Notes: generated from the letters alone by a model not told the origin. A stretch of 64,000 bases of DNA from Amoebophrya sp. A120 (GCA_905178155.1 CAJINV010000001.1:10472311-10536310), one strand, 5' to 3'. Numbered from the stretch's first letter, positions 1,237 through 63,232 are shown. Numbers and translations: made by a program.

Positions 1237-3254
1237 ATGGGCTTCAACATCGGCATAGGGACGCCCATGGGCACTCCGCGGTACGCATCCGCGACTTACC
1301 ATGCCGGGAGTACTCCGATGACCACCCCCCGCGGAGGTGGGGGCGCGGCCATGGTGCAGACGCCGCGGAGCGTTTCCGGCGCCATGACGATGCTGACGCC
1401 CAGGGTAAACGCGGCGGTGACCAGCGGCGCAAGTGTCTTCCAACAAATCGTCCTCCACCCGACGTGCTTGCTGCACCGACTCCCCATTTGCTCGTCCTCC
1501 GGATTCAACGTTTACCCACGGTCAAAATCCTTGCTCCCCGAGAAGGTGAAGGAAGAGAAGAAGCCCAAGGAGAAAAAGAAGAAACTCACTTTGAAATCCC
1601 TCGTGAAACTGACGATGATGTTCCGGCCCGAGATCCGGCTCTACTTCCGCATGAACGGCTACGACGCCGGCCCGCTCTTCCAGGGCCGGGTGTCCGCGCG
1701 GGAAGGCGAGCTGCGGACCGTGGGCGACATTCTCCGGGTCCTGCGGCAAAAACTGACCCGGAATGTGCAGGCGTACGTCGAGAAATTGAAAGAGTTATTC
1801 CCCTACGAGTCCTCCGCCGGGAGGACCACCATTGGCATGTACTCCGCGAAGGCCGAAGACATCATAGACGAAGACGCGGACATTACCTTCGTCGAGGACG
1901 ACGACACACCACCAAACACCGCCGGCGCGATGAATAACGCGAACAAGCAGGACGACGGGCAGGATAAGGACCACATCACGGTCGACCACATTGGCGGTGT
2001 GTACACCCTATGCAATGCAGAAGTATCGTACTAGTATAAATGGCATTACAAATTGGCGTAGCATTACAAATTGAATTTGTAATGCGGATTTGCCTTAACA
2101 AGAAGATTTGTAATGCATAAATGCCATTTTAGTACGATACTTTTGCAGTGCATACACACCGACGATCAAACTCTTCTACATGGTATCAAAGGCAAAAATG
2201 TCTGGGACTGGGTCTGGAAGAGCCAAACTTGTGATGCTGCATTTGGATGCTGAAAAAACCGGTATTGCATGTTCAAATTTGGCTACGCGGAGAGGGCATT
2301 TGTCATGCAGGACGCGCATCGATAGGCTTAGGCGCTCAAAAAATCTGTGATGCTATTGCATACATCAGAGACATCATGGATCATGGAAAATGTGCATGAC
2401 AAACTTCTCCTCTTCCAGACCCAGACGTTTTTACATTTGATACATGGTGTCGCCCAACGACATTGCGCACTTCGATTTGTACGCGTTCATCCCCCAGCGC
2501 GGTATCAAATGCAAAAATGTCTGGGTCTGGAAGGGTTGGAACTTGTGATGCAAACTCTGGAACACACAAAAATTTGCGTTGCATGAGCGCCAAAAGCTGT
2601 CCATTTCTTGGCACGCAAGTAGGAAGTTTCTCATGCGGGACAGGCATCAGGAGGCGTGCTCAAAACCTGTGATGCCATTGCCTGCATCAGACGCCACTTG
2701 CGTGATCCGAAATATGCATGACAAATCTCAGAATCTTCCAGACCCAGACATTTTTGCATTTGATACGCGGCAGACCGGTGCAAAAACTCCTCCTCCAGCA
2801 GCTCACCTACTACCCCTGGAACAAGCAGATCAAGCGGTTCGGGTGCGACATGCTCCCGCACCCGCCGGGGAGCCGGAAGATCCTGTTCGAAACACCCAAG
2901 CCGCAGAAGAAAAACATCGTGGTCAAGTTCCATGTGGAATCCGATTGGCAGGAACTGCAGCAGTTGATGCGGTTCCTGTTTGACGACAAGGTGAAAAAGC
3001 ACCAGCAGGAGCTGAAAGAAACACAGAAAACGTTCGCGGAGACGTATTTCAAAACCAAGTTGGAGCGAGAAGCGGGTGTGACGAAGGAGCTGATGCTGTT
3101 GTCGGAAAAGCTGTTGGAGAAAAATTGCGGCAACGTGCAATTGGGGTTCGGGGATTCCGTGAAAACGGACATGAACGAAAACATGCGGAAAATGTTCGAT
3201 TTGTACATCAAATCCAAGCAGGAAATGCTCTGGGACGTCAGTTTGAAGGCGTGA
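1237..3254 (+). CDS. Hypothetical protein interrupted by three introner elements
   Basis: ORF 1237-2008 joins micro-exons at about 2160-2183 and 2448-2502 and a final exon to TGA at 3254 when 151, 264 and 268 nt are removed. The joined protein reads ...GGVYTPTIKLFYMVSPNDIAHFDLYAFIPQRGRPVQKLLLQQ... Start codon uncertain; no family recognised. Confidence 0.75.
2009..2154. mobile_element. Introner A (TIR non-canonical intron)
   Basis: Left TATGCAATGCAGAAGTATCGTACTA matches the reverse complement of the right end, TATGCACTGCAAAAGTATCGTACTA (23/25). Flanks CACCC/CACAC. Removing 151 nt restores the frame. Confidence 0.85.
2184..2442. mobile_element. Introner B (main TIR family)
   Basis: TATCAAAGGCAAAAATGTCTGGG...CCCAGACGTTTTTACATTTGATA. 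TSD CATGG at 2179-2183 and 2443-2447. Removing 264 nt keeps the frame. Confidence 0.92.
2503..2765. mobile_element. Introner C (main TIR family)
   Basis: Perfect 31-bp TIR TATCAAATGCAAAAATGTCTGGGTCTGGAAG at 2503-2533 and 2735-2765. TSD CGCGG. Removing 268 nt restores the frame. Confidence 0.95.
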
Positions 3255-8000: not shown

Positions 8001-11000
8001 TTAGTCACCGCCTGACCAGCCCGGAAACCATACCGATCGCTTCCTTGCTTGCGGTCGGAATTCTGAACCAGTTTCTGGTAGAGCGGAAATTGCGCAGTGA
8101 GGTAAGTTGTATCTATCAGCACGACTGCATTTTCATTTTTCTTCCGCTTGCATTCTCTTTCTCTGAGTCACACAAAAATCACCACAACATACATCAACAA
8201 ACAGGTCGCTATCGTCGTGGAGGGAGGCGACTGCTTTGAAATCCATCACTTCGCCCTACTCCTCGGTTACGGCGCAGACGCCGTCTTTCCCTACATGGCT
8301 TACCTCGCGCTGCAGCGCTGCCGGCGACCGAAGTACACCCAGGACTTCAGTCTGGCGACCAAGATTGAAAATTACCGCCGCGCCGTGCATCAAGGCCTGC
8401 TGAAGGTGATGAGCAAGTGCGGCATCTCGTGCCTCCAGAGCTACAAGGGAGCGCAGTTGTTCCAGGCGATCGGGATCAGTAACAAAGTGGTAAACAAGTG
8501 TTTCACCGGTACGGACGTCGCCCTCCAGGGGGTCGGGTTTGACATCTTCCACTTGGATGCGGTCCGACTGCACACCATCGCGTTTCAGCAGATGCGGTTG
8601 CCCCCCCTGGTGGACGAAGAGTCCCGGGAGCTGCCAGACTGGGGCGAGTACCACTTCTATCGCACGAAAAAAGTGTTACAGTTACACATTTGTTGTCAAT
8701 TTAGCAACACAAATTTCTCGGCATGAGAGAGAAAACTTGCAATGCAGAAATCCTACGGGAAAACACCTATGAAAGGAGGCCCCTATCATGCATATCCGGC
8801 ATGACAGAGCTTGTCTGTCTTGCTTGGCCTGCAACACAGTGTGTAACTGTAACACTTTTTTCTCAGGATAACTTCCGCTCCGTCGGGGAGCAGAACGAGT
8901 TCCACATGAACTCCCCGTATCAAATGTAAAAATGTCTGGGTCTGGAAGAGTGCATGTTTGTCATGCTTGTCTGGCATGACTCTCAAATCTGTCATGCGCG
9001 TTACCCAAGAGCTCCATTTTTCTGCGATGCAGAAACGCAGTTTGTCATGCAGAATAGGCAACACCTAGAAGCTCAGAAACTTGTCATGCTGAGCCAGCAT
9101 TTGTGGCCTCATCATGAGACGACACCCAGCATCACAAGTTTCCAGACCCAGACACTTTTGCATTTGATACCCCGGACGTGATCGCGAAACTCCAGCAGGC
9201 GGCGAAGACGAACAGCACGAAAGCCTTCCGCACTTACGAGGAGTACCAGGACAAGATTTCGGAGCAGGGCGAGGTCCGCGGGCAACTGGAATTCGCGTAT
9301 CACGAAGACGGACCCTTGGACTTGGCCGAAATCGAGCCGGCGAGCGAAATCGTGAAGCGGTTCGTCACGGGCGCGGTCAGTTTGGGCAGCATTTCCGAAG
9401 AAGCGCACAAGGCGCTCGCGCTGTCCATGAACCGGGCCGGGTCCAGATCCAACACCGGGGAGGGTGGTGAGGAGTCGGAACGGTTCACCGCTTTGAAACA
9501 CTCCGGCTTGATCAAGGCCGGCGCCGTGGACTGGGAGGTGGAGAAAAACGACAGTTTCCGGTCGAAGATCAAACAGGTCGCCAGCGGGCGGTTTGGCGTT
9601 ACGACGCAGTATTTAGTGAACGCAGACGAGCTGCAGATCAAGCTCTCCCAGGGCGCGAAGCCGGGCGAAGGAGGGGAACTACCCGGGTACAAAGTGATCG
9701 GGAAAATCGCAGAGGTGCGGCAGAGCACCCCGGGAGTGGGACTAATATCGCCCCCGCCGCACCACGACATGTACTCGATCGAGGATGTCGCCCAGCTGAT
9801 CTCGGATTTGAAGCACGTGAACCCGGAGGCGCGAATTTCGGTGAAACTCGTTTCCCGCGTTGGCGTCGGAATCATCGCCAGTGGCATTGTGAAGGGGAAA
9901 GCGCAACACGTCACGATTTCGGGCGGAAATGGAGGTACCGGTGCCGCGAAGTGGACCTCAATTAAGCGCACGGGGTTGCCGTGGGAAATCGGGCTTGCGG
10001 AGACCCATCAGACTCTGAATCTGAATGGCATTCGGCAAAATGTGTGTTTGCAAACCGACGGGCAGATCAGAACGGCCCGGGACATCCTCGTTGCGTTCCT
10101 GCTCGGCGCCGACGAGGTTGCAATGACCACCGCACCGCTGATCACTTTGGGGTGCATCATGATGCGGAAGTGCCATTTGAACACCTGTCCAGTCGGCGTT
10201 GCGACGCAAGATCCGGAGCTACGTGCGAAATTTGACGGGCATCCAGAACACCTGATTAACTACTTGTTTCTTCTCGCGAACGAGGTGCGCCGCTACATGG
10301 CGCAGTTGCGGGTAACCTCGGTCAAAGAGCTGATCGGGCGTGCGGATTTGCTGCGACCGAGGCCGGCCACGTTTCAGAACCGGAAAACCGCGCAGTTGGA
10401 TTTCGAAGCGCTGCTCACTCCGGCTTGGACCATGAACAGCTTGGTCATGCAAGACCAGGCACCGCAACTACACCAGGAGACGATCGACCGCCGAGGCAGT
10501 CCGGCCGCGGCGGTCCGGCGCGGGACGCGTCGTGCTCCTGGGAACTACATTTGCTGCGGTGGGTCCGCGACGGCGGACGCGTTGGATCACTTCTTGGTGT
10601 CAAACTGCAAACCCCTGAAGGAATTCCAGCCGGCGCAGTCGTTCGGCCAGACACGTACTAGATGTGACTCAAATTTTGTCTCGTGCTGTTCATCTTTTGA
10701 GAGCTGTGTATTGTAATGGTAATATGCGACGCGTAGCGATTATATCAGTTCACATGATCAAGCAAGAGGGTTGCACACTCCGACACCAGGCTGGCTGCCC
10801 GGTGTCGACCAGCTTCGGCTGGGTCTCTGTCCTTTGTCCAGAAATACCGCATTGTCTTGGCTCGCCTAGATTTTGCGTTTTTTCGTCTCTTCGGTTCTCG
10901 GAGAGTGGATATTTGACGGAGGAGTGTCTCGATGAGAAAGCGAGGCGCACTTGTGCGCCTCAGGCCTTCGCTCTGGTTCTGCTTCGCAGTTCCGCCTTGT

Positions 11001-14000
11001 CGTTTCCGGCGCTGCCGATCCTTAGCGTGGATCAATGCAGTGCGCGGCAAGCAAAGAGCTCCGGTGGTCCCGTTGCCATTGAGCTGCCCAAGCCATGGGC
11101 AGGTCAGAACAGACGGCGTGCGCCTTGCCGTGTGCACGTAGCTCGGCCCTACCGAGTGCCAGGGCATTATCCTGACAGGGGATGATGTCCCGGTGGGAAG
11201 GAAGTTGTTGCGCAGCTCTCAGAGTGCGGAGAGAGAGTTCGCGTTCTTCGACTACCCTCCAGGCTATCTCCGTTCAGTGGTACACACACGTCGATGACGC
11301 GCTCTCGGTTCTCGCGAGCACCACTGGCCGGGGAGTGGAGAACCCGACTGCCCACGATGTGGGTGTAGCAGAGGTTCTTCACGCCGTTAGGGGCACAGGC
11401 CCGGCGTTATCTTGGCCTATTGGCCAGGCCCGCTATCGGCAAGACACATCGGAAAACAGCGCAGCTTCGTCTGCGGCCTGCCGCTCTGTGTGTCGCGGGC
11501 GCTTCGCGATTCTGCTTGTCGATGCACGCCGCGATGCGGCAGACATGCAGTAGCAAGGCGCTCGTCTGTCGTAAATGGATTCGCGCGAGCGGGGGCGCCG
11601 CGGTCCATTACGATGGGAAGGCCTCACTGAAGGCTGTGAAATAGCCACTGGTATCCTACTAGGGCGATGCCCGCAAGGTCCCTGTCACAGGGGTCCGGGG
11701 CCAGTGTAGCGGCAACCTACCGCAGCCGGCAAAAGATCGCGCCGACGGTCATAAGCCGGGGCTAAGTACAGACAGACACACAGGAACACGAGGCAAAAAA
11801 CAAGGCACCCCCGCGCCATGTATTTAGCCCCTGCCAATGGCAGGGGCCGCCCGATGGGCCGCATCACATACACACTACGATCTGACTACAAATAGAGTCA
11901 CCGAAACGAAACGCAATGGTCTGCGTGCCCGATGGGCACGCAGATATATTAAGTACCAGGGCCAGCCCTCACACCACACCGCCCAGCACCCTGGACGCGC
12001 AACCCCACAGCCCCGCAGGCGCGGCGGTTTGTAGCAGTGGGTCGCATGCCTGGGGCGCAGGTTATTGCTGGTGTGTGCCTTCGCCTGCGCGTGTGACTTC
12101 GATGACGTCGCCTGCGGGTGCTGGGGTGGGGTTGGGCGTCCGCGACGTCGTTGTTGCTGCTCTTCGGAGCTCGTGACGCCTTCGTTGCAGCTTCCACATG
12201 GATGCTTGCTTACATCTTGCAGGGCATGTTGTAGGTAGCACTTCGTGTGGAAGTATCAGGTGTGCTGACACGGAAGGAGAGCTGAGGAGCGTGGCCTATC
12301 GGCTTCGCGACTCCGTCCTTCGCTCCTCGGCGTCGGTCCGCCGGTGTTGATTGCTTGAATGCAGTCGACGCAGTCGAGGGGTTCAGCGGTTGGTGTGGGG
12401 GCGAGAGGGAGCGCTGCATAGATGCTCTTTTGCTTCTGTGAACAGGTTCGTTCTTCTCCTGCTTCGGGGTCTCCCAGGAGATCCTGACTCATCCAACGGG
12501 CCTGGGGACGCTTTTGTGGCCTTTGCGAAATTTAAACGAAACACAGCTACGACAGATAGCGTCTACTTACCGAGACGCGTGGTCGGTCGCGCAGTGCTTT
12601 GTGCTGCTTCCGCCACGAGAGGAGACCGCGGAACCCTCCCGGGCCTTACTTATTTAGTCACATTTGGGAGCACGCCCCCACTATCCTCACCCGGTTCCCG
12701 GGTTGTGTCGCGGGGATATGTCCCGGCACGATTCCACAAGCCTCGCTACTTTGCTACGCCGCCCCGTGCGCCCTGCTCTCTGTCCCCGACAGTGCGGGCT
12801 GCCCCCTTTGTTTAGTCGCATTTGGGGAAGATATTCGGCGGTCCCAGTCGCGCCTCGCGGCTTGGGCCACCTCTATGTCCGGGGCATGGCTCTGTGGGGG
12901 TCGAGAGCCTGGCTTGCATGGCCTGCTACCCGTAGCTCGTTGTGCCGGCCGGGTTCTCTCTTGGCTGCCATTGTGACTGTCGCTCGAGGTCTTGCGACTA
13001 TCACTGCGACGCGCTTCTGCACGTCATTCGCTTCCGTTGGTTGCGCGCGCGTTCACTCTATGGGTGAATTGCGCAGAGAAGGTGAAATTATATATAATGT
13101 TGCCTTCTGCTTCTTTGCGCTAGTAGAGCAAACCTTGACTGAAAACAACCTTGCAAACTAAAAAACTCAGATATCCACCAAGCCGAGCGTCGTATCCGTC
13201 CGCTGACGATCAGTCTCGTTCGCATCACCAATGAGCACCGCACCGTCGGTGCCATGCTGTCTTACATGGTGTGTCGATTTCAGGAGACTTTCAACGAGAA
13301 CAAGGCACTCGCTGCCGATACCATTCGGGTCCAGTTCCAGGGCCACGCTGGGCAATCGTTCGCAGCCTTCCTCATCACCGGAATTACCTTCGAACTTGAG
13401 GGCGACGCAAACGACGGCTGCGCCAAGGGACTCAGCGGCGGTCGCGTGATAGTCTACCCGCCGCAGATGTGCAGCTTGGTGCCGCACGAGAATATCTTGA
13501 TCGGAAACGCCGCACTGTACGGCGCGACCGGCGGTCAGGCCTTCTTTTCCGGTGTCGCATCCGAGCGGTTCTGCATCCGTAATTCCGGCGCCGTCGCGGT
13601 CGTTGAGGGCGTCGGCGATCACGGGTGCGAATACATGACGCGCGGGCTGGTGCTGATCCTCGGGAAAACCGGAACGAACTTCGCCGCCGGGATGAGCGGT
13701 GGGATTGCTTTTGTGCTGGATTTGAATCCCCAGAACGTGAATTCCCAGACCGTCTTCGTGGAAAGCATCACGGAAGAGGACCAGCACACGATCAGAAACT
13801 TACTGGAAGAGCACACGGAACTCACCAACTCGCAGATCGGAGCGGAGCTGCTAGCGCTACCGCCCAAGCAGCTTGCCCCTCGGTTCTCCCGCATTTTTCC
13901 GAAGGAGTACAAGAAGGTGCTGAAAGAAGCGATCGTCGAACACACGAAGGTCGGGTCGAAGCTCGCGGCGAAGATCCTCGATGAATTCGACAAGATGCGC

Positions 14001-26719: not shown

Positions 26720-29030
26720 AAGGAATCTACGTGGCGGATGGTGTACGATGAAATTGGTAAAAGAAAAATAAACTTCAGATGCCATAAGGAAGAAAAAGTA
26801 CTCGTACACACATGTTGATCTTCCTGAACCTGAGCCCCCACCCCGTTTTTGACTTACAAGAGCGTGAACGTCACTTATAATCGAACGGAAGCCCCCCGGC
26901 GCTCATAGAGCTTGTCGTGATCCTAAAAGTAAGAACTAACATACGCCGTTTTTTCATCACGCCAAAGATCACAGTCATGACCCCTTGTTCATTTCCAGCA
27001 CGACGTCATGATTACCTAAAAGAGCATCTAGATCGCTTTTTTGTGAAGTTGTAATAGTCACTGTCACACTACGATAGCATTGATTCATCTATTTTTCGAC
27101 CAAAAAGATGTAGTACTGATTTTTTCTTCTTCAAGCTTCAAACGCCTTTACTTTTACGATATGTCATTCACTGTGTTATATACGATATTGGTTGGTTGTA
27201 CTCTGCGAAAATAGACAGCACCCGAAATAGATATGTTTTCTGGTGTCAATCTCAAGCTCTTGCGCCAGAGAGTCATAGTTACATGGTCGGGGCTTGTTGA
27301 CCTCTCGATTTCTTTTTTTTTACAAGTCGATGTTACAATTTTCCCATGCGAGACCACAAGAAGTTACTTTGCACGCACGATTTTTTTGTCCGGCTAGTCC
27401 GACTATGGCTAGGGATTTCTTGTCAGGCTACGCATGCAGCCGTGAGCATTGGTATCACAAAAACGAGCGGGCCGTGTGCGTTTCCGCCTTTTTTTACACC
27501 AGGAGACGGACAGACTTTATTTTTAGAACAACTTGTACCGTATTGGTCAATAGTATTAGCCACTTTTTGTGCAACGGTTTCGCCGTGGTAACGTTAACGG
27601 ATAGAAAGGCAGACTACCTCGAGGAACTTTTGATAATGAACTCAAGCGAGCATACTGACACATTACCGAAGTTGTAATTGGAGTCTCTCGCTCAACGTCG
27701 ACCTGCATTGAATCCCAAGCGAGCGACGTTGGTTTGGATTCAAAATCTTCCTAGAAGACGCAGACGCAGGCACTTTCTCAGCCACTGACAAGGGCAAGCT
27801 TCATCAATCTCCAAAAGTATGAAGGAACTAAAGAGTCAAATCTTGTTCAACTTTTCTTTGTGTTCAAGCCATTCTAGGGAGAGTCGGGCGAGACATCTAC
27901 CGAGCAGCGTGACAGCATCTTCACGCAGATACGCAGGCGGGCAGGTTCGTTTCAGCTGTGACGCGCGGCCCATCAAGTCCCGGAGAACGTAGCGGCGCGG
28001 GTGTTGGCCATTGTGTTTTCCGCATCTGGCGGGTGCGGGAACCGGATAAATTTCGCGCGCCCACGCGCCCCGCGCGGGTAGCGCTTCGGGCGCATCTCGC
28101 CCGCGCCCGCCCGCCTTCCTGCTTGCCAAGGGGGGCGTCTTTTGTTTCTGTGCCGGGGCAGTTGGCCCCGGCCGATGAGCATCCTGGCGCAACACGAAGG
28201 CACGCCGGAGCCGCCGGCGCCACGCTTCCAGACAGGCTCGCTGCATTCCCCATCCGGATCAGAAACGCGGCGGCGGCTGGCCATGTTGAAGGACCCCGCG
28301 CCGCCCCGTCGCGCTATCTATATCTTCTAGCTGTGGCCTCTGTGCCGCGCGGCTGCCTGGCCCGCCCCCGCGGCCCGGCGCTAGCAACCGGGCCGGGGGG
28401 CGGCGGGGGCCCCGGTGCCCCTACGCGGCGCCCACGGTATTTCCCCCGGCCGGGCCCTTTGGGCCGCCGGTCCGCCGCGGCGGGCGAGGCCCCGAGCGGA
28501 GGGGCCGCCCCCCCGGGCTATTGTAGCCGCAGCGGGAGCGGGGGGGCGGGGGGCGCGGAGCCGTCCCCTTGGCCGCCCCCGCGCTGCGCGCGCCGCCGGC
28601 CGGGGGCGTAGGTACGAACGGGGGGCCAGGGGGGCGGGCGGTATTTGTTCCGGCCGAGGGCCCTCCTTCGCATGTCAATGTCTCCGAGGAACGGCATCGG
28701 GGCGAGCGGGCGAAGGGATGAAAGCGCGGGCGCGCGCCGCGAGTTTGGCGCGGGCCCGCGCCACGCACGCAAGGCAATCGGGCAGGGTCGCCGGGCCCAT
28801 GATGGCGCCCGCCGGTCGGCGCTAGCTTCGCCGGGTGGCCCGCCCCCCTTATCTCTTGCCCGCCGGCCACCGGGGATGGGAGGGTCCCGGGATCTGGCTC
28901 GCCGGCATGGCGGAAGTTACAACCATAACGGGGGGTCTACTCATCGGCTTCAGAACTTTTTGAAAACTTTTCGAAAACTTTTGAAAACAGAGAAAAGCGA
29001 TGACGCGAAACCACCAAGGTCCGACGCCCT

Positions 29031-29880
29031 TTTTTGGCGGCGTGCCGTCGTGTTTCGTGGTCATATATGCTGACCGATAAAAGGCGCGCGCGCTGCCGTC
29101 GGTCACACGTGAGCCACGGGCGGAATACTCTCCGCAGACTTGTAATCTCTTGCGCGCTTGAACAGCGTCGCGCGCCGCCCAAACAGGGCCGCGTCCTTGA
29201 TATATGTAGTCACGCATGACAAGGCTTTGATCCACCCCTTCGCGTTTCGCCTAGGGACAAACGCACTCGGTTGGCCGTGCTGTTTATTTGACCGCGGGAC
29301 AAACGCACTTGGGTGGCCACCCCCCCACCCGGGGCCAGCCCTCCTCCTTTTCGCCTGGCAGGGTCTAGGGTTTAGGGCTTGGCCCTCCTCCTTTTCGCAG
29401 GGCTTGGGTTTTGGTTTAGGGTTTGGGGCTTAGGGCCTAGGGCCTCGGTTCTCAGGCGCAGCGCGCCGGCCTTGAGAGGCGTGTCTGGAGAGGTCCAGGG
29501 GGTGCGCCCCTGCGCCGCGTTGCGTACGTTTGTAAACTCCACAAGAAAAAGCGGCGCAGCCGAAGAAGCAAGCTCTGACTTCTGTTACCTTTTTGGCGCC
29601 TGTGCTGACCCCAGGCACGGCGGCACGCCGCCAGAAAGGAGCGAGAATGCTGAGTCTTCAAAAAGTACAAAAGAAGCGCTACCCAGACACGAAGCAGGGT
29701 GGCACTGCCTGCGAAATAGGCAAAGCTCACGGCTCAGGTTTTGTAGTCTTTTTGGCGCCGTGCCGTCGCGTTTCGTGGTCATATACGCTGACCGATAAAA
29801 GGCGCGCGCGCTGCCGTCGGTCACACGTGAATCGCGGGCGGAATCCCCTCAGCAGATTTTTAATTTATTACGCGTTTGAA
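29031..29880 (+). repeat. Direct repeat pair inside the TIR element (about 29031-29160 and 29749-29880)
   Basis: Both copies contain GCTGACCGATAAAAGGCGCGCGCGCTGCCGTCGGTCACACGTGA, offset 718 bp. Confidence 0.9.
29360..29442 (+). repeat. Degenerate TTTAGGG telomere-like repeats
   Basis: AGGGTCTAGGGTTTAGGG...GGTTTAGGGTTTGGGGCTTAGGGCCTAGGG. Confidence 0.65.
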
Positions 29881-29902
29881 CGGCGTGCCGTCCTGTTTCG
29901 TG

Positions 29903-31210
29903 ATAGGTTTGGACCCCGGAGCCGGGGCGAAAAGTTGTATACTTTACATGCGACGAATAACGTGGGCGGTAACGTTATCCACGGCGGCACCGCGTAGGCA
30001 AAAAAGCGCGCTTTTTCAACTTTTGCTCGAATTCTGAGGCAAAACACGACCTGAGCGCCCATTTTGAAAAGTTTTTTTTTTGCACTTTTGGGCTATATGT
30101 GAAAAACCAAAACCGATGGCATGATGCCGCTTTTCTGGTCCTCGAAAAAACGAATCCCGAGCTAATTCCCGAAAAAAAAAACTTTTAAAAAACTTTTTAA
30201 AAACTTTCTTTTGGGGCACCAAAATCGTGCCGGTTTCAAGCAGAATCCGCCGCGGGGAGCTTCAAGAAGGGAGGCCAGAAAAAAAGTTTTTTCGGGGTTT
30301 TTTCGGGCTCGTTTCGGGCTCACCGAAATAGCACAGCAAAAAAGTCGCACTTTTTGGCCTCCGCCGTACCACCGTGCCAAAGTCAGCATTGCTCCAGCGC
30401 CGATGGTATGCTGGTGGTGTTTTTTTGTTATGTTTTGCCAATGCCGGCGCTTTTGCGTCTGAGTCAAGCTTTTGGGTTTTTTGGTAGTGCAAATAGCTTG
30501 GGCGATGACGGAAAAGCTAGAAGTTGAGTTTAGTGCTAGACTCTGGAAGAGCTGGAGTCGGAGTATGATACTGGATCACGGGGCATCGCTACACTTATTT
30601 CTCGGCTTGATTTCGTGATCATAGGTTTGGACCCGGAGCCGGGGTGGGCAACTGTATACTTTTTTACATGCGAAGAATACCGCTGGCGGTAGCATTATCT
30701 ATGCACGGCGGCGCGGCGTAGGGTAAAACGCGCGAGCTCTCGACTTTTGCTCAAATTCTGAGGCAAGGCGCGACCTTTGCGCCCATTTCAAAAAGTTTGC
30801 TTTGCGCTTTTTCGCTATATCTGGAAAATCAGAAGAAACCGACAGCATGGCGCCACTTTCCTGACCTTCAAAAAAAAACTCCCGAGCTGATTCTGGAAAA
30901 AAAAACTGCTGGAAAACTTTCCAAAAGCTTGCACATGGGGCACCAAAACGGTGCCGGATTCAAGCAGAAGCAGCAGCGGGGAGCTTCGGGAAGGGCGGCC
31001 AGATAAAAAGTTTTTTCGGGTTCGTTTCGGGCTCACCGAGGTAGCACTGTAAGAGCTTGCATTTTTTGGCCTCCACCATACCGCCGTGCCAAAATCAGCA
31101 CTGTTCCGGCGCCGCTGTTAATTATGTTGGTGGTGTTTTTTGTTATGTTTCGCCAATGCCGGCACTTTTGCGATGGAGGGGGTTCGCTGAGTCAAGCTGT
31201 TGGGGTTTTT
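29903..31210 (+). repeat. Diverged direct duplication of about 580 bp (about 29903-30482 and 30621-31210)
   Basis: Collinear anchors ATAGGTTTGGACCC, GGGGCACCAAAA, CGTTTCGGGCTCACCGA and CTGAGTCAAGCT, at offsets of roughly 720-730 bp. Confidence 0.88.
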
Positions 31211-42438: not shown

Positions 42439-45400
42439 ATGGCTGAGCCACCTGCAGACCCCATGATGGAAGAGGAGAGCCCAGCACCAGCAGTGGATAA
42501 ACATGAATCCGCGCCTGATGTGGTAGCAAATGCAAAAGGGGACGACCACGACGTAGTGGTGACGCCGAATCCTGCTGCCGTTTTGCGGTCACATTTGCTG
42601 GCCAATGGCGCAGAGAAACTCACGGAGTACGTCTGCGAGACCTTTCCGGAACCGAGTTCCTGCTGGTGGCTGTCTTGCATTGTCGGGACGCGGACGTTTG
42701 AAGAATCGATACTGGAGGACGAGACGACTGTGCTGTCCCTGGACGCGCTCGGGGTTAGCGACGACACCATTCTTACGGAGCAGGAGAAGGAGTCGAAGCT
42801 TCTGCAAAAAATCCGATACCTGCTGCTTAAGGACTCGGTGTCCACGACGGTAAGCGTAAGCGGAACAAGGCATGAAAATTATTTTCGTTTCCGCGCCATG
42901 CATTTTATTTTTCCATTTCAATTTCTACTTTGTGCAAAGAGACAAACATCATGATAAGTACATAGATAAGTACATTCATAAGTACTTATTAACCTACCTG
43001 CAAAGGTCCAGCACGGCTTTCGTGTGAGTGGTCTGGAGGCGCCGCGCGGCAGTTTTCGCGAGAAGTACTGGCCGCTGATGATTCTGAAGAAGTCCCACGC
43101 AGTCGACGCCTTTTTCACTGTTTTTCTCCGCCCCTGCATCCAGCACGACGAGGAAAAGCGGTTGTGTGTCGTGAGAAAAATCGTGGAAAAATTGAACGAC
43201 TTCTACACTGCACTAACCGCATCCGCCGAGGCTTTGAGCACGCTGGAAATTTTGAACTCCAGTGTTGTTATAACAGTGAAGGACCCCTGCAGCAGCCCGT
43301 TTAAAGATGAAAAAGCAACCGTCCTCGAAGCTTCCGCTCCCGAAAACGAGCCGGAGGTGTCGGTGAAATGGGTTTTGCTTCCGCCGCCCGAAGAACAAGT
43401 AGTTCTTTCAACAGCAACTTCACCTCCAGAGGTGGAGGACGGCGGGACCACCACAGCCGCGGAGAAAACTTCTTCCTCCAAAGAGGAAGTGGAACAAAAG
43501 CCAGCAGTTTCCCCACCTCCGCCGTCCTTATGCAAGAAAAAAAGGTTGTTAGTGTAAATTTGTGATGCACAACATGCAAATTGCTTGAGCCTGTCATGCT
43601 TGGCATGCATCTAAGGGTCCATTCAGCGGCGTTTTCCCGTACTATCTGCGCATGACAGGTTTTTGCTGTCATGCGGGAGATATTTGTCATGCTAATCCTC
43701 CAACAAAGTTACACCTACAATCTTTTTTTCCTGGATAGTCCTGTGCGATCGTGAACTATCACCCGGATTTGAAGCTGACGCACAAGCAAATGTGGCGGGA
43801 CGGGAATTCCGAGGACGGATTCGTCTTCGGTGTGCGCACGATCCGGGAGTGCTGGTCGTCCGTGCTGACCAAGCTCGATACGAAGTGGAAAGAGAAGCAA
43901 AGACGGTTAGAATTGAGAAGCAAAGCGGAGCAAAAGGCAGAAGCTGTCGCTGCAAGAAGTGCAGGTGGAGCTGCCACTGGAGTAGAACAAGAAGTATCAG
44001 CACAGGCTGGAGAGAACGAGGATGAAAAAATTGTCAAAGACGAAGAAAAGGACCTGGACTTCCTAGAGGCGGAAGGGGCTGTTATAGCGTCAAATTTGAG
44101 TTCTCCAGTGGAGCAAGCAGACGAGTTCTACGGCGACGAAGCTGCCGGGGACGTATTTGTCTCCGGAAACAACTTATTGGAGGAGAAAATGCGGGTCTAT
44201 GAGACCGATGTGTACTTCACAACGGCGACTGCGGCAGCGGTGTCCCCAAGCGGGTTGGAAGCAGCTTCCCCCGCAACGTCAGATGAAGATGCGAAAGAAG
44301 TAGGTTCGGCGACGAAACAGGATGGCGACGCTGGGAATAAAGCAGAGGCACTTGCAAGTAAGTTGTTTGTGGAAGTAGATCTTCCAGCTTCGGACGACAA
44401 AAAGGTCATGAAACTAGTGTCAGTTGGGAACTCTGACGAAGTGTTTACGTCGCAAGAGCCTGCAGCTTCGGGTGTGGTCGATGCTGTTGGTGAAACATCA
44501 GGTGCATTTTTGTTTTTCTAGTCAGTACCGAAGAAGCTTGCGCCATATTGTTTTTCTAGTCATTTGGTGTATAAACTCGTTTGAATCTTCCGCAGCTGCA
44601 TGCGTCACAGTTTGTTGCAGCTCACATTTAAAAATTTTACCAGCACAAAGCCTGAGTTTCTAAAATCACATCATCCTGCTCACCTCTTTTCAGCCCCTAC
44701 TGGTGAGAGGAAAGACTCGTCCCCGGAGCGCCGCGCTAGTTTGACTGCGGAATACCTGCGACAGACCTTCGAAGACCCGATTGGCCGCCCGATTTCCGAG
44801 TTGGCGTCCGAGTGGAGTTTCACGGAGTCCCGGGTAGCCATGCACAGCAGCCGGCCGAAGGACCGGGAAAGCATGCGGGCGTATTTGTTGCGCGTGAACA
44901 TGGAAAAACTGATGTTCTCCTCCGCGTCCGCCTACGCGCAAAGCCACCGCGACCCCCTAGACGACTTCGAAGAACTGATTTCCGAGGCCACGCCCGCGGC
45001 GGGATTTCGAAACACAGGGAACAATGCCCTCGGCTTGGAGAAAATTGTCGAGGTGGAGGAGGGATCTCCGCTGAGGGAATTACAGCAGGAAAAGGAAGTA
45101 GAGCAAGGAGAAAATCTCCTTGCAGACGACCAGCCGAAGCAAGCTGCTAGTAGCAGCAGCACGGCAGCGAAACTGGCCAACATGGTGAGCTTGAGCAGCA
45201 ACGAGTCTGTCATTCACACGCTTTCTTCTAAAGAAGACGCCCCGCCGCCGGTGAAGCAAACGACCGCTAGATCCTCGAGACGGGTGACACGGAAAGTCGA
45301 TTGGACGAAGCACTTAATGCTCAGTACTTTTATATGTCTGGCTTGTGGTCGTTCTTATTCTTTGTTGACTTCAGAATCTATCAGAACATGTAGTATGTCC

Positions 45401-48103: not shown

Positions 48104-48961
48104 AAGTATGTCTTTTTGAAGTGGTTTTTTGCTGTGCCTGGGTCAACATAATGCATGAGTTGCTTGCGGGGCCGACAAAGATTATCGGTTGTGAGCCAAG
48201 TGATAGGGAAGCTACTTCACGTCAAGTGTAGTACCGGAGCCGTGTAAAAATCATTTTTCCAGGTTTTGAAATTGAGATTTCTTCCGTAGTTGTTCGCCGG
48301 GCTCGAAGTACTTGGAACTAGTATTCTTCTTGTGAAGATCATACGCATTTTTCGCCAACATGACTGACAGAATGTGAATGATCTTTCTACAGTACTTACG
48401 TCACAGCGGTTGCTTTACCCTATAATCAGCATCCTGAATCTATTGATCGCGATGGAAATACGAAGTAAGATGAAAGACGATTTGGATGTGTTACATGAAG
48501 AGCTTTTTCGACATGTGGAAAGCAGGGAAACCATGCGCTCGCAAATTGAACCATGTCATCATGACAATCAAGAGACGGGTCTCGTTCCTAGACTAAGAAT
48601 TTGAACTTTACTCCACCAGGGTGTTCTAGGAAGCAGTGCCGATCAGATGTAGATGGCCGTGGATCAGAACCATAGTAAAATCCAGAATGTTTGTTGATCT
48701 TATGTCTTTCCATCGCAAGCCAAAAGCTAAAGCAATCCCACCAATGCAGGCAACCCAACAACCAATTTCTTCCGTTTAGTCTTAGTGTTAGTGTTGAATG
48801 AAAAATAAGAACCACATAAGTACCTACCCATCTTTTCAGTATCACCCAGTAGTCCTCGAGGAATTATGTCCCAAGGAGGAGAATCAGAATCGCACGCAGC
48901 CTACTAACTCTCCTACATTTCATCTTCACACTACGACCCGTATTTGAATTATTAAAAAGCC

Positions 48962-49582
48962 ATGGCCTCCCTTTACAAGGAAATTATGCCGGCGAAGGCC
49001 GTCTACTGGGACCGAAAATCCGGGCTTTCCCTCGATCAGTGGAAGAAACAACTGGAAGTCTCCACGACGATTTATGTCGGGAACCTTTCCTTTTGGACGC
49101 AGGAAGAGCAGATTTGGGAACTCTTTTCCAAATGTGGCAATCTCGTCGCCCTCACCATGGGCCTGAATAAGTTTAAGAAACAGCCGTGTGGGTTCTGCTT
49201 CGTCCAGTACAGGACACATGAAGAGGCCGTCCGAGCCGTTCACGTGTTGAAGAACGCAAAACTCGACGGCAGGTCACTGACCGTCGACTTGGACGCTGTA
49301 GGTGTGACCGACGGGCGACAATACGGCAGAGGGGAGACCGGCGGGCAATGGCGAGACGACATGCGGAAAGGCTTTGACGCGCAGCGGGGTGGGGACGGGA
49401 AGGATTTGTTGAAGAAGGTCAACGGAACTGACGGCTGTATTTACACCGGGAAGAACTTCCACCGAGAAAACGCAGACGAGGACAAAACGAAAAAGAAGAA
49501 GGACGGCGACAAAAAAGATAAGAAAAAAAGACACAAAACCGACGACAAGGGGGAGAAGAAAGCAAAGCGACAGAAGACCTGA
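48962..49582 (+). CDS. NCBP2: Nuclear cap-binding protein subunit 2 (CBP20)
   Basis: RRM with STTIYVGNLSF.T.EEQI.ELFSKCG, MGL.K.KK.PCGFCFV.Y and GRQYGRG..GGQ.RD, which are CBP20 hallmarks. Confidence 0.95.
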   Translation: MASLYKEIMPAKAVYWDRKSGLSLDQWKKQLEVSTTIYVGNLSFWTQEEQIWELFSKCGNLVALTMGLNKFKKQPCGFCFVQYRTHEEAVRAVHVLKNAKLDGRSLTVDLDAVGVTDGRQYGRGETGGQWRDDMRKGFDAQRGGDGKDLLKKVNGTDGCIYTGKNFHRENADEDKTKKKKDGDKKDKKKRHKTDDKGEKKAKRQKT

Positions 49583-50623
49583 ATGATGTGACTCTTTTGG
49601 TGCATCGCTTATTTGTTCTCTGGTCGGAGACGTAGATGAACCGTCAACATTAGAGCTCAGAAGTAGCACAACAAACACGAGAAAGATTTAAGATTGTGAC
49701 AACGTCGGGTAAAACAAAGTTCTTTCTGCAGGTCCTCTGAACGACTCGTCTACCCCCGTTGCTCGCGTCTAGGTGTTCGCCTTTACCAGAGACTAAAGCC
49801 CTCCTAGTAGTCATCCATCGTGCATATGAAAATGGACGTGTGTATGTATGGTGAGTATCGAGAGCGAAGAGAGACTTTCTCCATAGCGAGCACAAACAAG
49901 AAACTACTTGTGAGCGATCATTTTTGAACGCAATCCGAAAATCTGGATCGTCTAGAAGGAGTTTGCCAACTGCAATCGGTGGGGAAAATCATGCTGAAAA
50001 TGGTTTTATCGTCTTCAACAGGAACCAACACAAGAATCGATCCCATTCAATATCGCGCCGTCCTCTATTACCCCCTGACTGTAGTAGTTTTCTCCTCGTA
50101 ATTATGTCTGCTCTTATTCTCTGGAAATAAATGTCGATCCGTGTCTGTGTTGTCGGTCTCGGTCGCTAAACAGAAAAACGCTATTTCCAAATCTGTCTTC
50201 CACTAAGAATCTGTCTTCTGTGCAGTAAAAAACGCAAGACTGGGTCTACCAGGGATGTTGTACGTAGGTGTTTAGCGCATCGCATGCTCGGCACTTTCAA
50301 GCACTAATATTTGTCTTCGCGCTTCTTCATCGTTTTGCGAGTAGGGTAAAAGTAAATCATATCAAAACCGAAGATGTTGTACCCTGACCCGTTGATCGTG
50401 TGGGCGTTTTGCATTGTACGCAGCCTCTTTGTTGTTCACTTGTCGAAATCTCCCCATCCCCATGACCAAGAAACTTCATCTTCGGCTACTAACACAAACG
50501 ACTTCAATCTCACGACGGGGTTTCAGTAGGTGATTTTTTTTCAACCCTTTGGGTAAGAACTTTCGTCGTCGTATACTACAAAAGTATTCATCTTGCTGTT
50601 GAAAACAAGAACCCTCCGAGAAA

Positions 50624-51277
50624 ATGGATAACAACGCAAGCGCACTATTTCGGGAGGGTCTGGAGACCGAGAAGCGCATGAGCTTCAAATGGATGCAGGA
50701 TATGGATTTGTCCGACGCCAAAGAGATCCCGACCGAGGTGCAGTACAAGTCCTCCAGCATCGCTGCAGAACCGTTCAAGAAGCACCTTGTCCAGGAAACC
50801 AAGGGCTTCAAGCCGCAAATCAAAAAGGAGAACTTCGAACGGGCCAAGAAATCTTTCGGCATGTGCAACAGCGAGTTGCCCTACGTAATGGCCCGTGACG
50901 ACCCGCGCCCACTGGCACAGTGCTTCCGGTATAGCGCGATTTGTTCATCTGGTGACGTACTATTCATGAAGATTGAGACTTACCACCAGTATGCTATCGG
51001 AAAGATGTGCTTCAGCTTCTTGCACAAATCTTCGTACCCTTCGCCGCTACTGAACGAGCTGAAGCACTCCATCCAAAAATTCATTTCTGTTTGAAATTAG
51101 AGTTGTCTTAACATAACAAAACCAAACTAAAACCATATCAGAACCGGTCGTGTGGGTGAGATGCAGATGAAGCAAGCACCACCAGCTTTGCGTCAGTCCG
51201 AGTACTACGGGAAACCCGATGCCACGGCGGGCTTCTACCGTCCCTCCGGCGCTTTCTACGCCGTCGAGGACAAGTAA
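50624..51277 (+). CDS. Small hypothetical protein, two exons
   Basis: Coding-like exon 50624-50928, GT-AG intron 50929-51141, then an exon reading R-TGRVGEMQMK...FYAVEDK to TAA at 51277. Confidence 0.65.
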
Positions 51278-52310
51278 AAGCAACGACTGCACGCGAACAA
51301 AACGAGTCATCACCTACCTCCTTTTTACTCGAATAAAAAAATGATCACGACACGCGCAGACTCTCACTACTAGACTTGCCTTTCAGAGCAGCACTGACTT
51401 GTATTTCCACAGTATCTTTTCGGTGAACTACAGATAGCACGGTGATGGAGTCTTGACGCCATGGGCCAGTGGACGGAAATGAAATAGTTGTCGTACGCAC
51501 TGGATACTACCAGAAACAAACAACAGCTACAGTAGAAGTTCAGCATTGTAAGATTTCTTGCAGTACCAGACGTTTCTTGTTATATGAATCAGAGCAGCAA
51601 AGTATAGCCTACCCGCGTCTTCGAGTATCAAGATTTGAAGAAGATTTTTATGAGCCGTCGACTACAGCTGCAGAGAATCAGTGTTTTGTTTGAGAAATCT
51701 TTCTGAACTGAGCTTGTCCGGCAGTGCAAGAACCGCAATCCCGGAATACCTAAAACTTGCTACCCTTTTCAATTTCAACATCACAGGTGCTGTTAATGAA
51801 CATTGATTTGCAACGACCTTTTCTACCTTCCAAGCTTTGGTGGGTTCACCACGGCGGAGGACAACCGCACGCAAGAAATGCGTCCCTGGAGTTCCCACTT
51901 TGACGCGTTTTCGCCTTTTATTCGAATGGAATCGTGATTATCGTGGTTCGCTGCACTTCAAAGAAAACTACTATCGTCCTAACTAAGTGCTGTCGCGATC
52001 GCTTCAAGTCGTCGTCTTCCTGCATCGCTATATCGAAATCGCACATCGTCATCGTCGTAGTAGTCGTTATCGTTTCCGAGAGTCAATATCAACAGTTTGG
52101 TTTATTTTGACAGGGGAAGAGGATCGTTGAAATCGCATATCTTATTCGTGTTTCTTTGGCGAAGCGGTGCATCATCTCAGTTTTCTGCACCTTGGAGGTG
52201 CTAATCTGTACAGAGATGAAACACTCAGGATTCCAAGATCAAGAACGTGAAGAAATCGAGCATGAGCTTCTTTGATTTAGTGTGAATATTAAGTACAGTT
52301 TTCCTCCATC

Positions 52311-58300: not shown

Positions 58301-60268
58301 CGGGGTCGCGATTTTCACGGTCCTGTTCGTCTTCATCCTGATTGCCAGCAGCGGCGCGAACCTCGCTACAACCTTCGGCCTCATCGCGGAGGGGAAACGC
58401 GGCGCCGCGGAACTGTTTTTCACGCTGGACCGCAAGCCGATGATCCAGTACACCTACGCGGATCCAGTCAACATGGTCCCGGAGCCGCAGCGGTTTCGCA
58501 AACTCGCGCGAAATCAGAAGAAAATCAAGGACTTCGAGCAGATCCGGTTCCAAAACGTCCACTTTTCCTACCCATCCCGGCCAAAGAACCCGATTCTGCG
58601 CGGTCTGACCCTGGAAATCAATCGCGGCGACACGGTCGCTTTGTGCGGCCCCTCCGGTGGTGGCAAGAGCACGGTGATGCAGTTACTCCTCCGGTTCTAC
58701 GACCCAAACCAATTCGTGTCCGGTTTGTACAGGAAGGACCGAAACGTGCAGAAATACCTCCTCCACGGCTCGTTCGCGGGCAGAGTGGTTTTGAACAAAG
58801 ACGAGCTGGACCTGCGCACCGCCGTGGATTTAAAGTCCTGGCGGTCGATCATCGGATACGTGGGACAGGAACCGGTGTTGTTCGACATGTCGGCCTGGGA
58901 CAACATTGTGTACTCCCTGGAAGCCGAAGAACAGGCCAAAGTGACGGTAGACCAAGTGAAAGAGGTTATCCGAAGTAAAAATGTGCCCACCCCAGAGTTG
59001 TCATGCAGATTTGCGATTACAGGAAGATTTGTAATGCGCATCTCCTTGAGAGGCGTTTCCAATCGTGTTTTGCAATTTGTCATGCTGCAAACAGGATAAG
59101 CGCATGGATTTGTGATGCGGTTGTCGTTTCTAACATGCACTACGCTACGGACTGCAACCTGTCATGCGTGGCTCCCAAAACTTCTGGATTTGTGTTGCTA
59201 AGTTCCCATCTTGACCTTGGTGTGGGGACGTTTTTACATATGAAAGATGTCGCAAAGCAGGCCATGGTGGACTTCCTCGGCGAGGTAGCACCGCCACCGG
59301 CTTCTTATGGATTGTAAAAATGTCTGGGTCTGGAAAATTGCAACTTGTCATGCTGTCTTTGGATCCCAAAAAAATATGTATTGCGTGACCAGCAACAGGG
59401 GTCCAGTTTGTGTTACGCGGAGAGGGCATTTGTCATGCGGAATAGGCATCAGGAAGCCCTCTAAATATCTGTGATGCTAGATCATGCATTACATGAGTCA
59501 TGGATCATCTAAAATATGCATCACAAATCCCGGAATCTTCCAGACCCAGACATTTTTACATTTGATACTTCTAGCGCAGTTACAACTTCTCCCACCCCGT
59601 CCGGCGGGTTGCCGGGGTTCGAAAGCGCCGCTACTGGAGCGAGTAGCCCTTCCTCCCTCGGAGAAGTGAAGACGGCGGGGACAGCGGTCTCTGTTGACAG
59701 TGGAGCAGCAACTACAGCTACACCGCGGAAAAGTGCGGCGCAGGTGGGGTTCTACCCTTCTGGGGACATTATGATGGACAACATAACGTCTGAGGGCAGC
59801 AAGCAAACACCTACGTCTCCGGCGACCGGCGCAACCACCCCGTTCATGCCCTCCTCGTACAGTCAGCAGCCGCAAAGTGCGGAGGGCAAGAAGCCAGCCG
59901 AGATCGGGTGGCACACGCTACTCGGCACCCGGGCGTCGCTTCTCTCGGGTGGGCAGCGGCAGAGATTGTCCATCGCACGGGCGTTGTTGCGGAAGCCGCA
60001 GATTCTCCTGTTAGACGAAGCTACGGCGGCACTGGACAACAACTCGCAGAGGGAGGTACAGGCGGCACTGGACGCTTTGCTGCAAACGATGGGAAAACGC
60101 ATGACGGTAATCACGATTGCCCATCGGCTCTCGACAATTCGCAACTACAGCAAAATTTTAGTGATCAAGCAGGGAGCACTGGTTGAGCAGGGGAATCATG
60201 ACATGCTACTGCAACAGAACGGAATCTACGCCGGCTTGTACTACGCGTCGGTGGGAGACGAGCACTGA
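52311..60268 (+). CDS. ABCB (MDR/P-glycoprotein-like) full transporter, TMD-NBD-TMD-NBD
   Basis: Walker A GGSGSGKST and GPSGGGKST; signatures LSGGQKQR and LSGGQRQR; Walker B ILDEAT and LLDEAT; AHRLST twice; two hydrophobic TMDs. GT-AG introns at 55698-55832 and 57662-57835, plus introners G and H. Confidence 0.93.
58967..59245. mobile_element. Introner G (diverged TIRs)
   Basis: Left TATCCGAAGTAAAAATGTGCCCACCCCA; right reverse complement TTTCATATGTAAAAACGTCCCCACACCA (21/28). Flanks GAGGT/GATGT. Removing 284 nt gives DQVK(E/D)VAKQAMVDFL. Confidence 0.82.
59306..59567. mobile_element. Introner H (main TIR family)
   Basis: TATGGATTGTAAAAATGTCTGGGTCTGGAA...TTCCAGACCCAGACATTTTTACATTTGATA. TSD CTTCT. 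Removing 267 nt keeps the frame. Confidence 0.93.
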
Positions 60269-61158: not shown

Positions 61159-63232
61159 ATGGAGCGCAGCAACATGAGGAATCAGACGGTGGCTGTCGCC
61201 GGGCGACAGTTCAACCCGCTGGAACAGGATGAGTCGGTGCTCCGCAAGGGCGAGCGTTCCAACACTTTGCCGACCAGTTTCCGTCGTGGTGATTTGGAAA
61301 TCAAGGAAGCCGACTTGAAGGACCTCGAGCAGCGCCAGGCAGCGTTGAAGGGTAATAACTCCGATTTAGCCTCATGTCAGTGCATCTTGTCTTGCGTGAC
61401 ACTTCTCCTTCTTCTTCATCACATTCCGCGTCGAAAATGATTTGTGCTACGCTCGTCGCGCTCAAATTCAAGAGTGCATATGCATCGAAAATCAAAAACT
61501 AAATCAGGTCGTCAGCGACGTGGGTCTATCAACTTGACGAAGGTCGATGAGAAGGACATGGCACACTACTGGGAAGAATGCAAGGACATTGACCTGCACT
61601 TGCACGGCAAGCTCTCAGCAATCCAATCTGACAACGTCCCTGGCGCTGAGCGGGAGGCTGTGTTGTACAAGCTGAAGGTAGAAATCGAGCTTCTTGTTTC
61701 AGATTCCTTTAGCCACCGTGACCGTTCCTAATGCTGAAATATGCAAATGTTCTTCACCTTCATCATCCAACAGGAGCCGAAGCTGCTGCAGGAGAAGTAC
61801 AAGTTTATCTACTCCTGCGTGAAGGGTGCCAAGGGCTACAACGACACAACCCCGAACCAAGACAACTTCTCCTACACCGTCTTCCAGGGCTGGGACATCA
61901 TCATCATCATGGACGGTCACGGTCCCTGCGGGCACCGCGTCTCCGCGCGCTGCGTGCAGACCATCGCCTTCTACCTGTGCACGAACTTGAAGTGGGGAAA
62001 AGGTATTGCAGCAAGCTTTTCATCTATGACTAAATCCACATCATCAGCAGATTATCCTGCTGTTTTGTACGTGTACTGCAAATCTTCAAAATTAATGCGA
62101 GTGCGACGCAAACAAGCGCCCCCGACACCGACACACAACATAACACAAAAATGCTCTTCCGAAACTCCACAGACATGAAGGGCGCTATGAAGGACGCGTT
62201 CGCCAAGGCTTCCGAAGACGTGCTCGCGTACGCCATTGAAAACGATATTGACGTGCAAGCCTCCGGATCCACCTGCGTCATGTACATGCACAACGGCGAG
62301 CAGTACTACACGGCGAACGTCGGGGATTCCCGGGCGGTGATTGGATACGAGGGGGAGAAGGAAGTCGTCTTCGAAACCGCGGACCACAAGCCGAACTCGC
62401 CGGAAGAAAAGAAACGCATCGAAGCGAATGGCGGTGAGATCAGAACGCTGCGCTACGACGACTTCACGGTGGACCGTATCTTCGTCAAGGGCTGCGACTT
62501 ATCAACTGCAAAAATGTCTGGGTCTGGAAGCGTCGGGGCTTGTCATGCACATTTTGCATGACCCGTGAGGTCTGTGATGCTGGTGCAAGCATCACAGATT
62601 TTTTGAGAGCTTCTTGATGGTGATTACGCATGAGAGCTGCCCTCCCCGCGTGCCAAGAACTGACTCCTCTTGCTGCTTATGCAACACAGACATTTTTAGA
62701 ATCCGCAGACAGCATTACAAGTTCCACTCTTCCAGACCCAGACATTTTTGCATTCGATACGACTACCCCGGTCTCTGCATGTCCCGGTCCTTCGGGGATG
62801 AGTGCGTCAAGGGCTGCGGTGTCACCTCCGAACCGGAAGTCACCGGACCAACCAAGGTATCTTTAGGGTAGCGGTGATGGTGGTACTTAATACATAGGCT
62901 TTCCGACTCATCATTTGCTCGTGTCGTAATCTTATCATCCCACGATTACGAAAGTTGTCGATTTATTACAATAAAACGTCTACTGTCGAAACAAAAAACA
63001 GCTCGACCTCTCCCGCAATCCGTTCCTGGTGATCGCTTCCGATGGTGTGTGGGAGTTCATCGAGAGCGCTTGGTGCGTGAAGGCGATTGTGAAAAAGCTG
63101 TCCCAGGAGCCGGCCGAGCGAATCATGCAGAAGCTGTCCAAAGAGGCCCGGCGGCGATGGAAACAGGAAGAAGGCGAGTACTGTGACGATATTACGGTCT
63201 GCTTCATGCAGATGAACCGCCATATGAAGTAA
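61159..63232 (+). CDS. Protein phosphatase 2C (PPM family)
   Basis: Motifs PNQDN, MDGHG, SGST, ANVGDSR, DHKP, MSRSFGD, IASDGVWEF and DDIT. GT-AG introns at 61352-61507, 61678-61773, 62003-62172 and 62857-63001, plus introner I. Confidence 0.94.
62500..62759. mobile_element. Introner I (main TIR family)
   Basis: TATCAACTGCAAAAATGTCTGGGTCTGGAAG...CTTCCAGACCCAGACATTTTTGCATTCGATA. TSD CGACT. Removing 265 nt gives RIFVKGCD-YPGLCMSRSFGD. Confidence 0.95.

Follow-up and report, generated by a model that had tools for sequence, protein, structure and literature searches.

A conserved, regularly spaced internal motif common to families of short intron-like inverted-repeat elements in Amoebophrya sp. 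A120

The stretch analyzed here, a window of 64,000 nt from Amoebophrya sp. A120 (GCA_905178155.1, CAJINV010000001.1:10472311-10536310), is eukaryotic, and the genes examined in it lie on the + strand and contain ordinary GT-AG introns. Host genes encoding a glutamate synthase, an ABC transporter, a PP2C phosphatase, and two genes without Pfam match, are additionally interrupted by nine short elements (A to E and G to J, Table 1) of 146-279 bp, which have TAT...ATA ends (except for the decayed right end of G), inverted arms reaching approximately 30 bp, and a 5-bp target duplication. Inverted arms with a flanking direct repeat were sought without assuming a terminal sequence; the scan returned the same nine places as the first-pass annotation of this sequence, and its remaining rows were weak (at most 18 of 24 complementary positions, many of low complexity). 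In all nine elements, 18-24 of the first 24 arm bases are complementary, and the direct repeat is exact in seven, with four of five positions matching in A and G. Together with its duplication, the element has a length that is not a multiple of three in seven of nine cases, and would thus shift the frame if kept; open frames are restored by deleting each element plus one duplication copy. Being short, non-coding, armed, duplication-flanked and multi-copy, these sequences display the features of miniature inverted-repeat transposable elements (MITEs). Rfam gave no match at gathering thresholds.

Six of the nine elements (A, B, C, D, E, and I) are cleanly missing from spliced transcript contigs of one sample; the host genes of J, G, and H lie outside the RNA coverage, so this count concerns six elements. 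All six are removed without GT-AG ends, as judged from contigs whose run type we assume, and the contigs of X1 also lack the canonical introns. One X1 contig has 74 nt between positions 2008 and 2766, which equals the exon sequence of 24 + 50 nt, so A, B, and C are gone; it joins 2008 to 2160, thereby retaining the upstream copy of the two differing duplication copies of A. In a second X1 record, 8099 and 9170 are separated by 492 nt, which is the length predicted if both D and E are removed together with one copy each of their duplications, and at element I a joint 62494-62760, present in X1, X2, and X3 (one sample), skips 265 nt, with 5 ambiguous letters. Skipping by reverse transcriptase is compatible with the contigs alone, yet removal in the cell is needed because the host frames require it. 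In run X6, the summed contig depth amounts to 2x10^4 to 5x10^5 on bins covering elements versus ∼45 on the flanks, a contrast that is not a copy number and from which it follows that the elements are highly repeated.

The interiors of the elements share a short word in both orientations, and every placement listed in the first-pass annotation is present in the window. Element A contains GCATTACAAA at 2043 and 2061 and TTTGTAATGC at 2076 and 2107; TTTGTCATGC occurs in B, E (twice), J, G, and H, TGTGATGC in B, C, J, G, H, and I, and GCATGACA in B, C, D, and J, with one additional copy outside the elements at 29214. Written as TGTN(A/T)TGC (TGTNATGC/GCATNACA), the motif has 36 matches in the 2,143 nt of elements versus 4 in the other 61,857 nt, and 2,000 dinucleotide shuffles of the elements yielded a mean of 0.79 and a maximum of 5. 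The motif is also commoner in elements than in canonical introns, contrary to what would have refuted the original reading: no match was found in 1,137 nt of canonical introns (eight introns, approximate borders), where ∼19 would be expected at the element rate. The five motifs of G all point in a single direction (31-bp pair at 58999/59030), the motif of D is oriented opposite to most of those of J, and the motif pattern of I is reversed relative to B, C, and H. The grouping of elements originally proposed was only partly retained, as D and J have homologous interiors and form one family, and the interior of E belongs to a family separate from that of B, C, H, and I. The arms of the family of A have nested TAT starts at left-arm positions 1, 16, and 27, and its outward motifs are unlike those of most families.

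Table 1. Elements of the window and motif pairs within them.
Feature	Positions	Strand	Size or spacing	Family	Duplication	Motifs and host
Element A	2009..2154		146 bp	F2	CACCC/CACAC	four motifs, facing outward
Direct motif pair in A	2078..2116	+	31 bp start to start			
Element B	2184..2442		259 bp	F0	CATGG	four motifs
Element C	2503..2765		263 bp	F0	CGCGG	three exact motifs
Element D	8658..8870		213 bp	F3	ACTTC	in glutamate synthase gene
Element E	8918..9169		252 bp	F1	CCCCG	five motifs
Direct motif pair in E	8959..8997	+	31 bp start to start			
Element J	43529..43737		209 bp	F3	GTCCT	five motifs; 31-bp pair 43561/43592
Element G	58967..59245		279 bp	F4	GAGGT/GATGT	in ABC transporter gene
Element H	59306..59567		262 bp	F0	CTTCT	five motifs; reverse pair 59486/59518, 32 bp
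Element I	62500..62759		260 bp	F0	CGACT	in PP2C phosphatase gene; 32-bp pair 62541/62573

Using the arm of the B family as bait, we collected 148 stretches from the public contigs JACKZZ01, kept as 142 loci (797 kb with overlaps), a sample biased to the bait family; the same arm had no match in viral contigs. The window elements are 84-95% identical to their nearest copy in the loci, similar to the identity of the locus copies among themselves, and the elements of window and loci therefore represent the same system. We called 361 elements in the loci (359 non-overlapping), the 5-bp repeat being exact in 294 of the 361 (the minimum required was 4/5). With the nine of the window, this amounts to 368 elements, 341 of which fall into 15 interior families of at least three members; the 27 elements in smaller clusters were excluded from the family tests.

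These copies clarify what the ends have in common. The first-pass annotation had proposed a terminal grammar shared by all arm types, including a run of A, and its strict form indeed fits 16 of 18 window ends. Among the 299 calls made without assuming this grammar and having an exact 5-bp repeat, 268 have TAT at both ends, and repeat lengths other than 5 bp lead to scattered or internal ends. The A-run is not universal: outside the bait type of terminal inverted repeat (TIR), the strict grammar fits only 232 of 360 ends, and it fits none of the 60 ends in four families whose arms lack an A-run. General terminal features are thus only TAT plus the 5-bp duplication, and a related arm pattern (TAT, seven variable bases, at least three A) is already published for the introners of A120 (Farhat et al., 2021; PMC7789003). 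The earlier statement that the arms of each element stay complementary needs correction at arm positions 4-8, where mismatches are frequent, complementarity ranging from 0.42 to 0.79 and not exceeding within-family shuffles (z 0-2.6). TIR covariation displays a small excess over these shuffles at positions 9-28, which we set aside as evidence because subfamily structure and the calling threshold can create such an excess. Across loci L001-L142, a few variants of the first ten bases, at arm positions 4-10, recur in families with different arms, for example in the bait family and the family of A, which hints at an exchange of ends between families. Four longer elements of the bait family (L040:571-1051, L041:3862-4492, L057:10001-11031, and L064:11024-11995; 481-1,031 bp), with ends and duplication intact and no long frame, are probably nested insertions.

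The internal motif is far more general than the arms. TGT.ATGC was the top gapped 8-mer found de novo and is present in all 15 family consensuses, in a wider form (T/C)TGTN(A/T)TGC with an A-rich 5' side, and 358 of the 368 elements contain at least one exact copy. After removal of overlaps, its density in the loci is 11.6/kb in called elements and 11.4/kb in element fragments, versus 0.29/kb elsewhere, the latter likely corresponding to missed elements. In the 11 families with at least six copies (327 elements), conservation reaches 0.947 in the core columns, compared to 0.799 in other interior columns and 0.754 at the N position, and this excess is significant in all 11 (permutation p 0.0002-0.027). 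It is also seen in G/C and in A/T columns once CpG is excluded, and neither base composition nor CpG accounts for it. When the motifs are masked, only 1 of 105 pairs of family interiors scores above all 150 shuffles, and 104 do not. A common ancestry of the families is thus plausible but old, and the word itself is under constraint; recent common descent with no excess conservation, which would have refuted the original reading, is not what the families show.

The sites are also arranged regularly. Of 47 same-direction neighbors, 23 are 31-33 bp apart (null mean 1.85, maximum 10 in 20,000), and the best 3-bp spacing window in the null reaches at most 12. Such pairs are present in 14 of the 15 families, with visibly different spacers; three turns of B-DNA correspond to ∼31.5 bp. 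Seven further same-direction neighbors lie 92-97 bp apart. Inverted pairs with a gap of 7-8 bp, counted with one mismatch allowed per site, occur 13 times in 10 families (best window in the null at most 10 in 10,000). The first site lies at 32-34 (8 cases), 41-47 (12), 53-56 (3), 61-63 (2) or 70 bp (1) from the end, and this clustering at ∼10-bp steps is supported against two nulls (p ∼1e-4; the families are related) for 26 of 29 first sites, three at 81-109 bp being excluded.

To orient the elements relative to their host genes, we called the host strand with a codon model for 197 of 322 tested family members (within-locus agreement 145/150). The elements lie in the same orientation as the gene in 105 cases and in the opposite one in 92, and family F4, whose sites all point in one direction, splits 12/9. 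On the sense strand of 224 elements, 37 have the forward word only, 39 the reverse word only, and 5 none. Arm mismatches on this strand comprise 167 G-U versus 187 A-C, hence there is no G-U excess and no sign of selection on RNA pairing in the arms. A protein acting at the DNA level is favored because the motif is found on either strand, because G-U pairs are not in excess, and because the spacings are multiples of the helical repeat.

We therefore hold, with moderate confidence, that these elements are non-autonomous, MITE-like DNA transposons acting as introns, and that their motif is a predicted double-stranded DNA site for one mobilizing protein, probably a transposase or its helper serving all families. 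Several protein subunits would sit on one face of the helix, at sites 31-33 bp (about three turns) apart, with the first site ∼33, 43 or 54 bp from the end and with additional inverted pairs 7-8 bp apart. Their binding would assemble the two ends of the element, and the enzyme would cut at TAT and insert with a 5-bp stagger. Copies losing sites would cease to spread; this would account for the persistence of the motif alongside diversifying arms and interiors. Excision from mRNA probably takes place as a distinct step, for which the terminal hairpin and the duplication would serve as guides. Of the two proteins originally put forward for a common binding site, the transposase or helper acting on DNA is thus favored and the excision factor acting on RNA less so; a shared site is supported by the presence of the motif in 15 of 15 consensuses, its conservation, its fixed spacing, and the unalignable interiors around it.

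Several observations weigh against this interpretation. First, the families are not independent samples, and deep common descent contributes to what they share: several motif-masked family pairs reach z ∼4, and a 40-nt module with two sites is 85% identical between A and G. In predicted RNA folds, 32 of 32 motif bases of A pair with another motif. The motif might be a neutral relic of one ancestral element, multiplied by internal duplication and module swapping, or be kept only to extend an RNA hairpin; the module common to A and G, the weak residual similarity between some families, and the pairing of motif with motif in the folds of A, I, and B would all fit. We regard this as very unlikely, since conservation is position-specific with the N inside the word drifting, an excess that already largely refutes it. 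The spacing is moreover kept across unalignable spacers, the sites in the F4 consensus all point in one direction and are unable to pair forward with reverse, and the arms have no G-U excess.

Second, many sites are located mid-element rather than subterminally, the period of the phasing is ill-defined, with significance across 9-13 bp, and neither the window nor the 797 kb of loci yielded an autonomous element or a transposase. Farhat and colleagues likewise found no transposase in A120 and rejected a general mobilization driven by transposase, in the accessible text of their study (PMC7789003). In the long TAT...ATA candidates, the longest open frame measured between 85 and 151 aa, and the two candidates of greatest length, both in L062 (6.2 and 10 kb), seem to consist of two separate short elements each. 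Unpaired ends were listed as well, the neighboring frames being left unmatched to protein families. An alternative is a DNA-binding or chromatin protein of the host that would bend or protect the element and thereby promote its copying without being a transposase. It would agree with the mid-element sites, with the signs of action on DNA (spacing, both strands), and with the lack of a recognizable transposase in window, loci, and the published text. It is nevertheless rather unlikely in our view, because the window shows no enrichment of the motif outside the elements (4 matches in 61.9 kb), although a host factor should have sites of its own there.

Third, motif damage is 0.057 in elements with a mismatched duplication versus 0.054 in those with an exact one (p 0.67), duplication mismatch being a weak proxy of age. 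This weighs against a pure mobility role, because a motif serving mobility only should decay after insertion. The motif could instead recruit a dedicated excision factor, bound to RNA or to DNA during transcription, and be kept by host selection. Removal is indeed exact and needed, as seven of nine elements shift the frame and six of nine are absent from transcripts, damage does not rise with duplication mismatch, and U1 small nuclear RNA was undetected in Amoebophrya according to the available text of PMC7789003. Yet a reader of single-stranded RNA would need to recognize both the word and its reverse complement, given the elements with only one of them or none; D is removed despite a single exact site; damage is about equal in elements called coding (0.053) and in uncalled ones (0.057); and helical spacings are unexpected for an RNA site. 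We consider such a factor unlikely. A further possibility, which we judge improbable, is that the motif-binding protein defines introns on the DNA, holding the arms together while transcription proceeds or immediately after it, with the result that the transcript would lack the element and one copy of its duplication.

If the mobilizing protein is a transposase, an integrase-like DDE enzyme would be our guess by analogy, because of the 5-bp duplication and of a published A120 family with a 5-bp duplication, TA ends, and homology to an integrase region. This family, fam38, is classified in the supplement of Gozashti et al. (2025; PMC12130899) as Ginger, with a 5-bp target-site duplication (TSD), TA/TA termini, and homology to a Copia/Gypsy region, and in the main text as having no Ginger homology, termini or TSDs, as far as these parts of the source go. 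Ginger transposons are described in the text available to us with TGTNR ends, arms of 40-270 bp, and mostly 4-bp duplications (PMC2836005). The ends found here are TAT, not TGTNR, and we rejected Ginger termini on this ground. The arms run to ∼30 bp, and the 5-bp duplication is matched only by TDD-4 and TDD-5.

The window harbors other features outside these families. An element of 2,671 bp occupies 28917-31587; its inverted ends, perfect over 22 bp, start TTACAACC, and its 5-bp duplication is GGAAG. It lies in a GC-rich stretch and contains internal repeats of ∼720 bp, telomere-like TTAGGG runs near 29360-29440, and one exact motif copy. The longest frame in this region has 232 aa, and no match to it was found in the fetched loci. 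The glutamate synthase gene has a 2.5-kb intron at 10655-13170 that is skipped in X1; an assignment of this interruption to the introner-type elements was ruled out, as it is a GT-AG intron with a different repeat. That repeat (∼10720-13095) has ∼10x the flank depth in X6, transcribed relatives, and frames of at most 188 aa. Finally, a single transcript contig of 2.8 kb (48748-51803) spans an RRM gene (48962-49582) and the gene that follows it, perhaps owing to read-through or a long untranslated region, a contig not being proof of a single transcript.

The elements are of a known kind, as introners of A120 have been described as repeated non-canonical introns of ∼240 nt with direct repeats of 3-5 nt, in co-oriented genes, and split into about 1,954 families (Farhat et al., 2021; PMC7789003). 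In the text available from that study, they share with the window elements the inverted arms joining the intron ends, a 3-5 nt repeat, the TAT/A-run arm, a removal that does not use GT-AG, and repetition. Its quoted arms of 8-20 nt are shorter than the ∼30 bp found here, and an internal motif, a spacing rule, and a single duplication length are absent from this text; our families have in common a uniform duplication length of 5 bp, TAT ends, and one internal word, but not the A-run. The A120 families of Gozashti et al. (2025; PMC12130899), as far as the text covers them, are mostly TIR DNA elements of unassigned superfamily with varying duplication lengths. Several of their lengths (∼106, 149, 209, 234, 252, 260, 278, 305, and 320 bp) match those of our families (109, 150, 209, 235, 253, 262, 280, 308, and 321 bp), yet families are handled singly there, and no shared internal motif is mentioned in the text seen or in the 58 A120 rows of supplementary file 8. 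The consulted portions of PMC9860276 and PMC11282704 likewise mention none, and searches of literature and supplements for Amoebophrya introners, and for TGTCATGC, left the word unreported within their scope, which covered text and part of the supplements rather than figures. A precedent is the Arabidopsis MITE Emigrant, whose subterminal motifs are bound cooperatively by Lemi1 proteins, according to the part of PMC1636448 available to us. Both are short non-autonomous elements with repeated internal motifs, binding being only predicted in our case. Emigrant is one MITE family sharing its ends with its partner, whereas here at least 15 families with different arms, all intron-like, are linked by nothing beyond their TAT ends, the internal word, and the 5-bp duplication. 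The conserved and regularly spaced internal motif and the uniform 5-bp duplication therefore appear to be new.

A uniform TAT end, a 5-bp duplication, and one spaced word suggest that many families belong to one system, with one protein serving them. This word, with its spacing, provides a bait for pull-down, a target for mutation in a reporter, and a better signature for annotating these introns. Both the spread of the Amoebophrya introners and their removal have been posed as open questions, and the motif with the uniform 5-bp duplication makes such a question testable. If the motif-binding protein did define introns on the DNA, a single DNA-bound factor blind to strand, possibly a domesticated transposase, would account for both the spread and the removal of tens of thousands of introns that lack splice signals.

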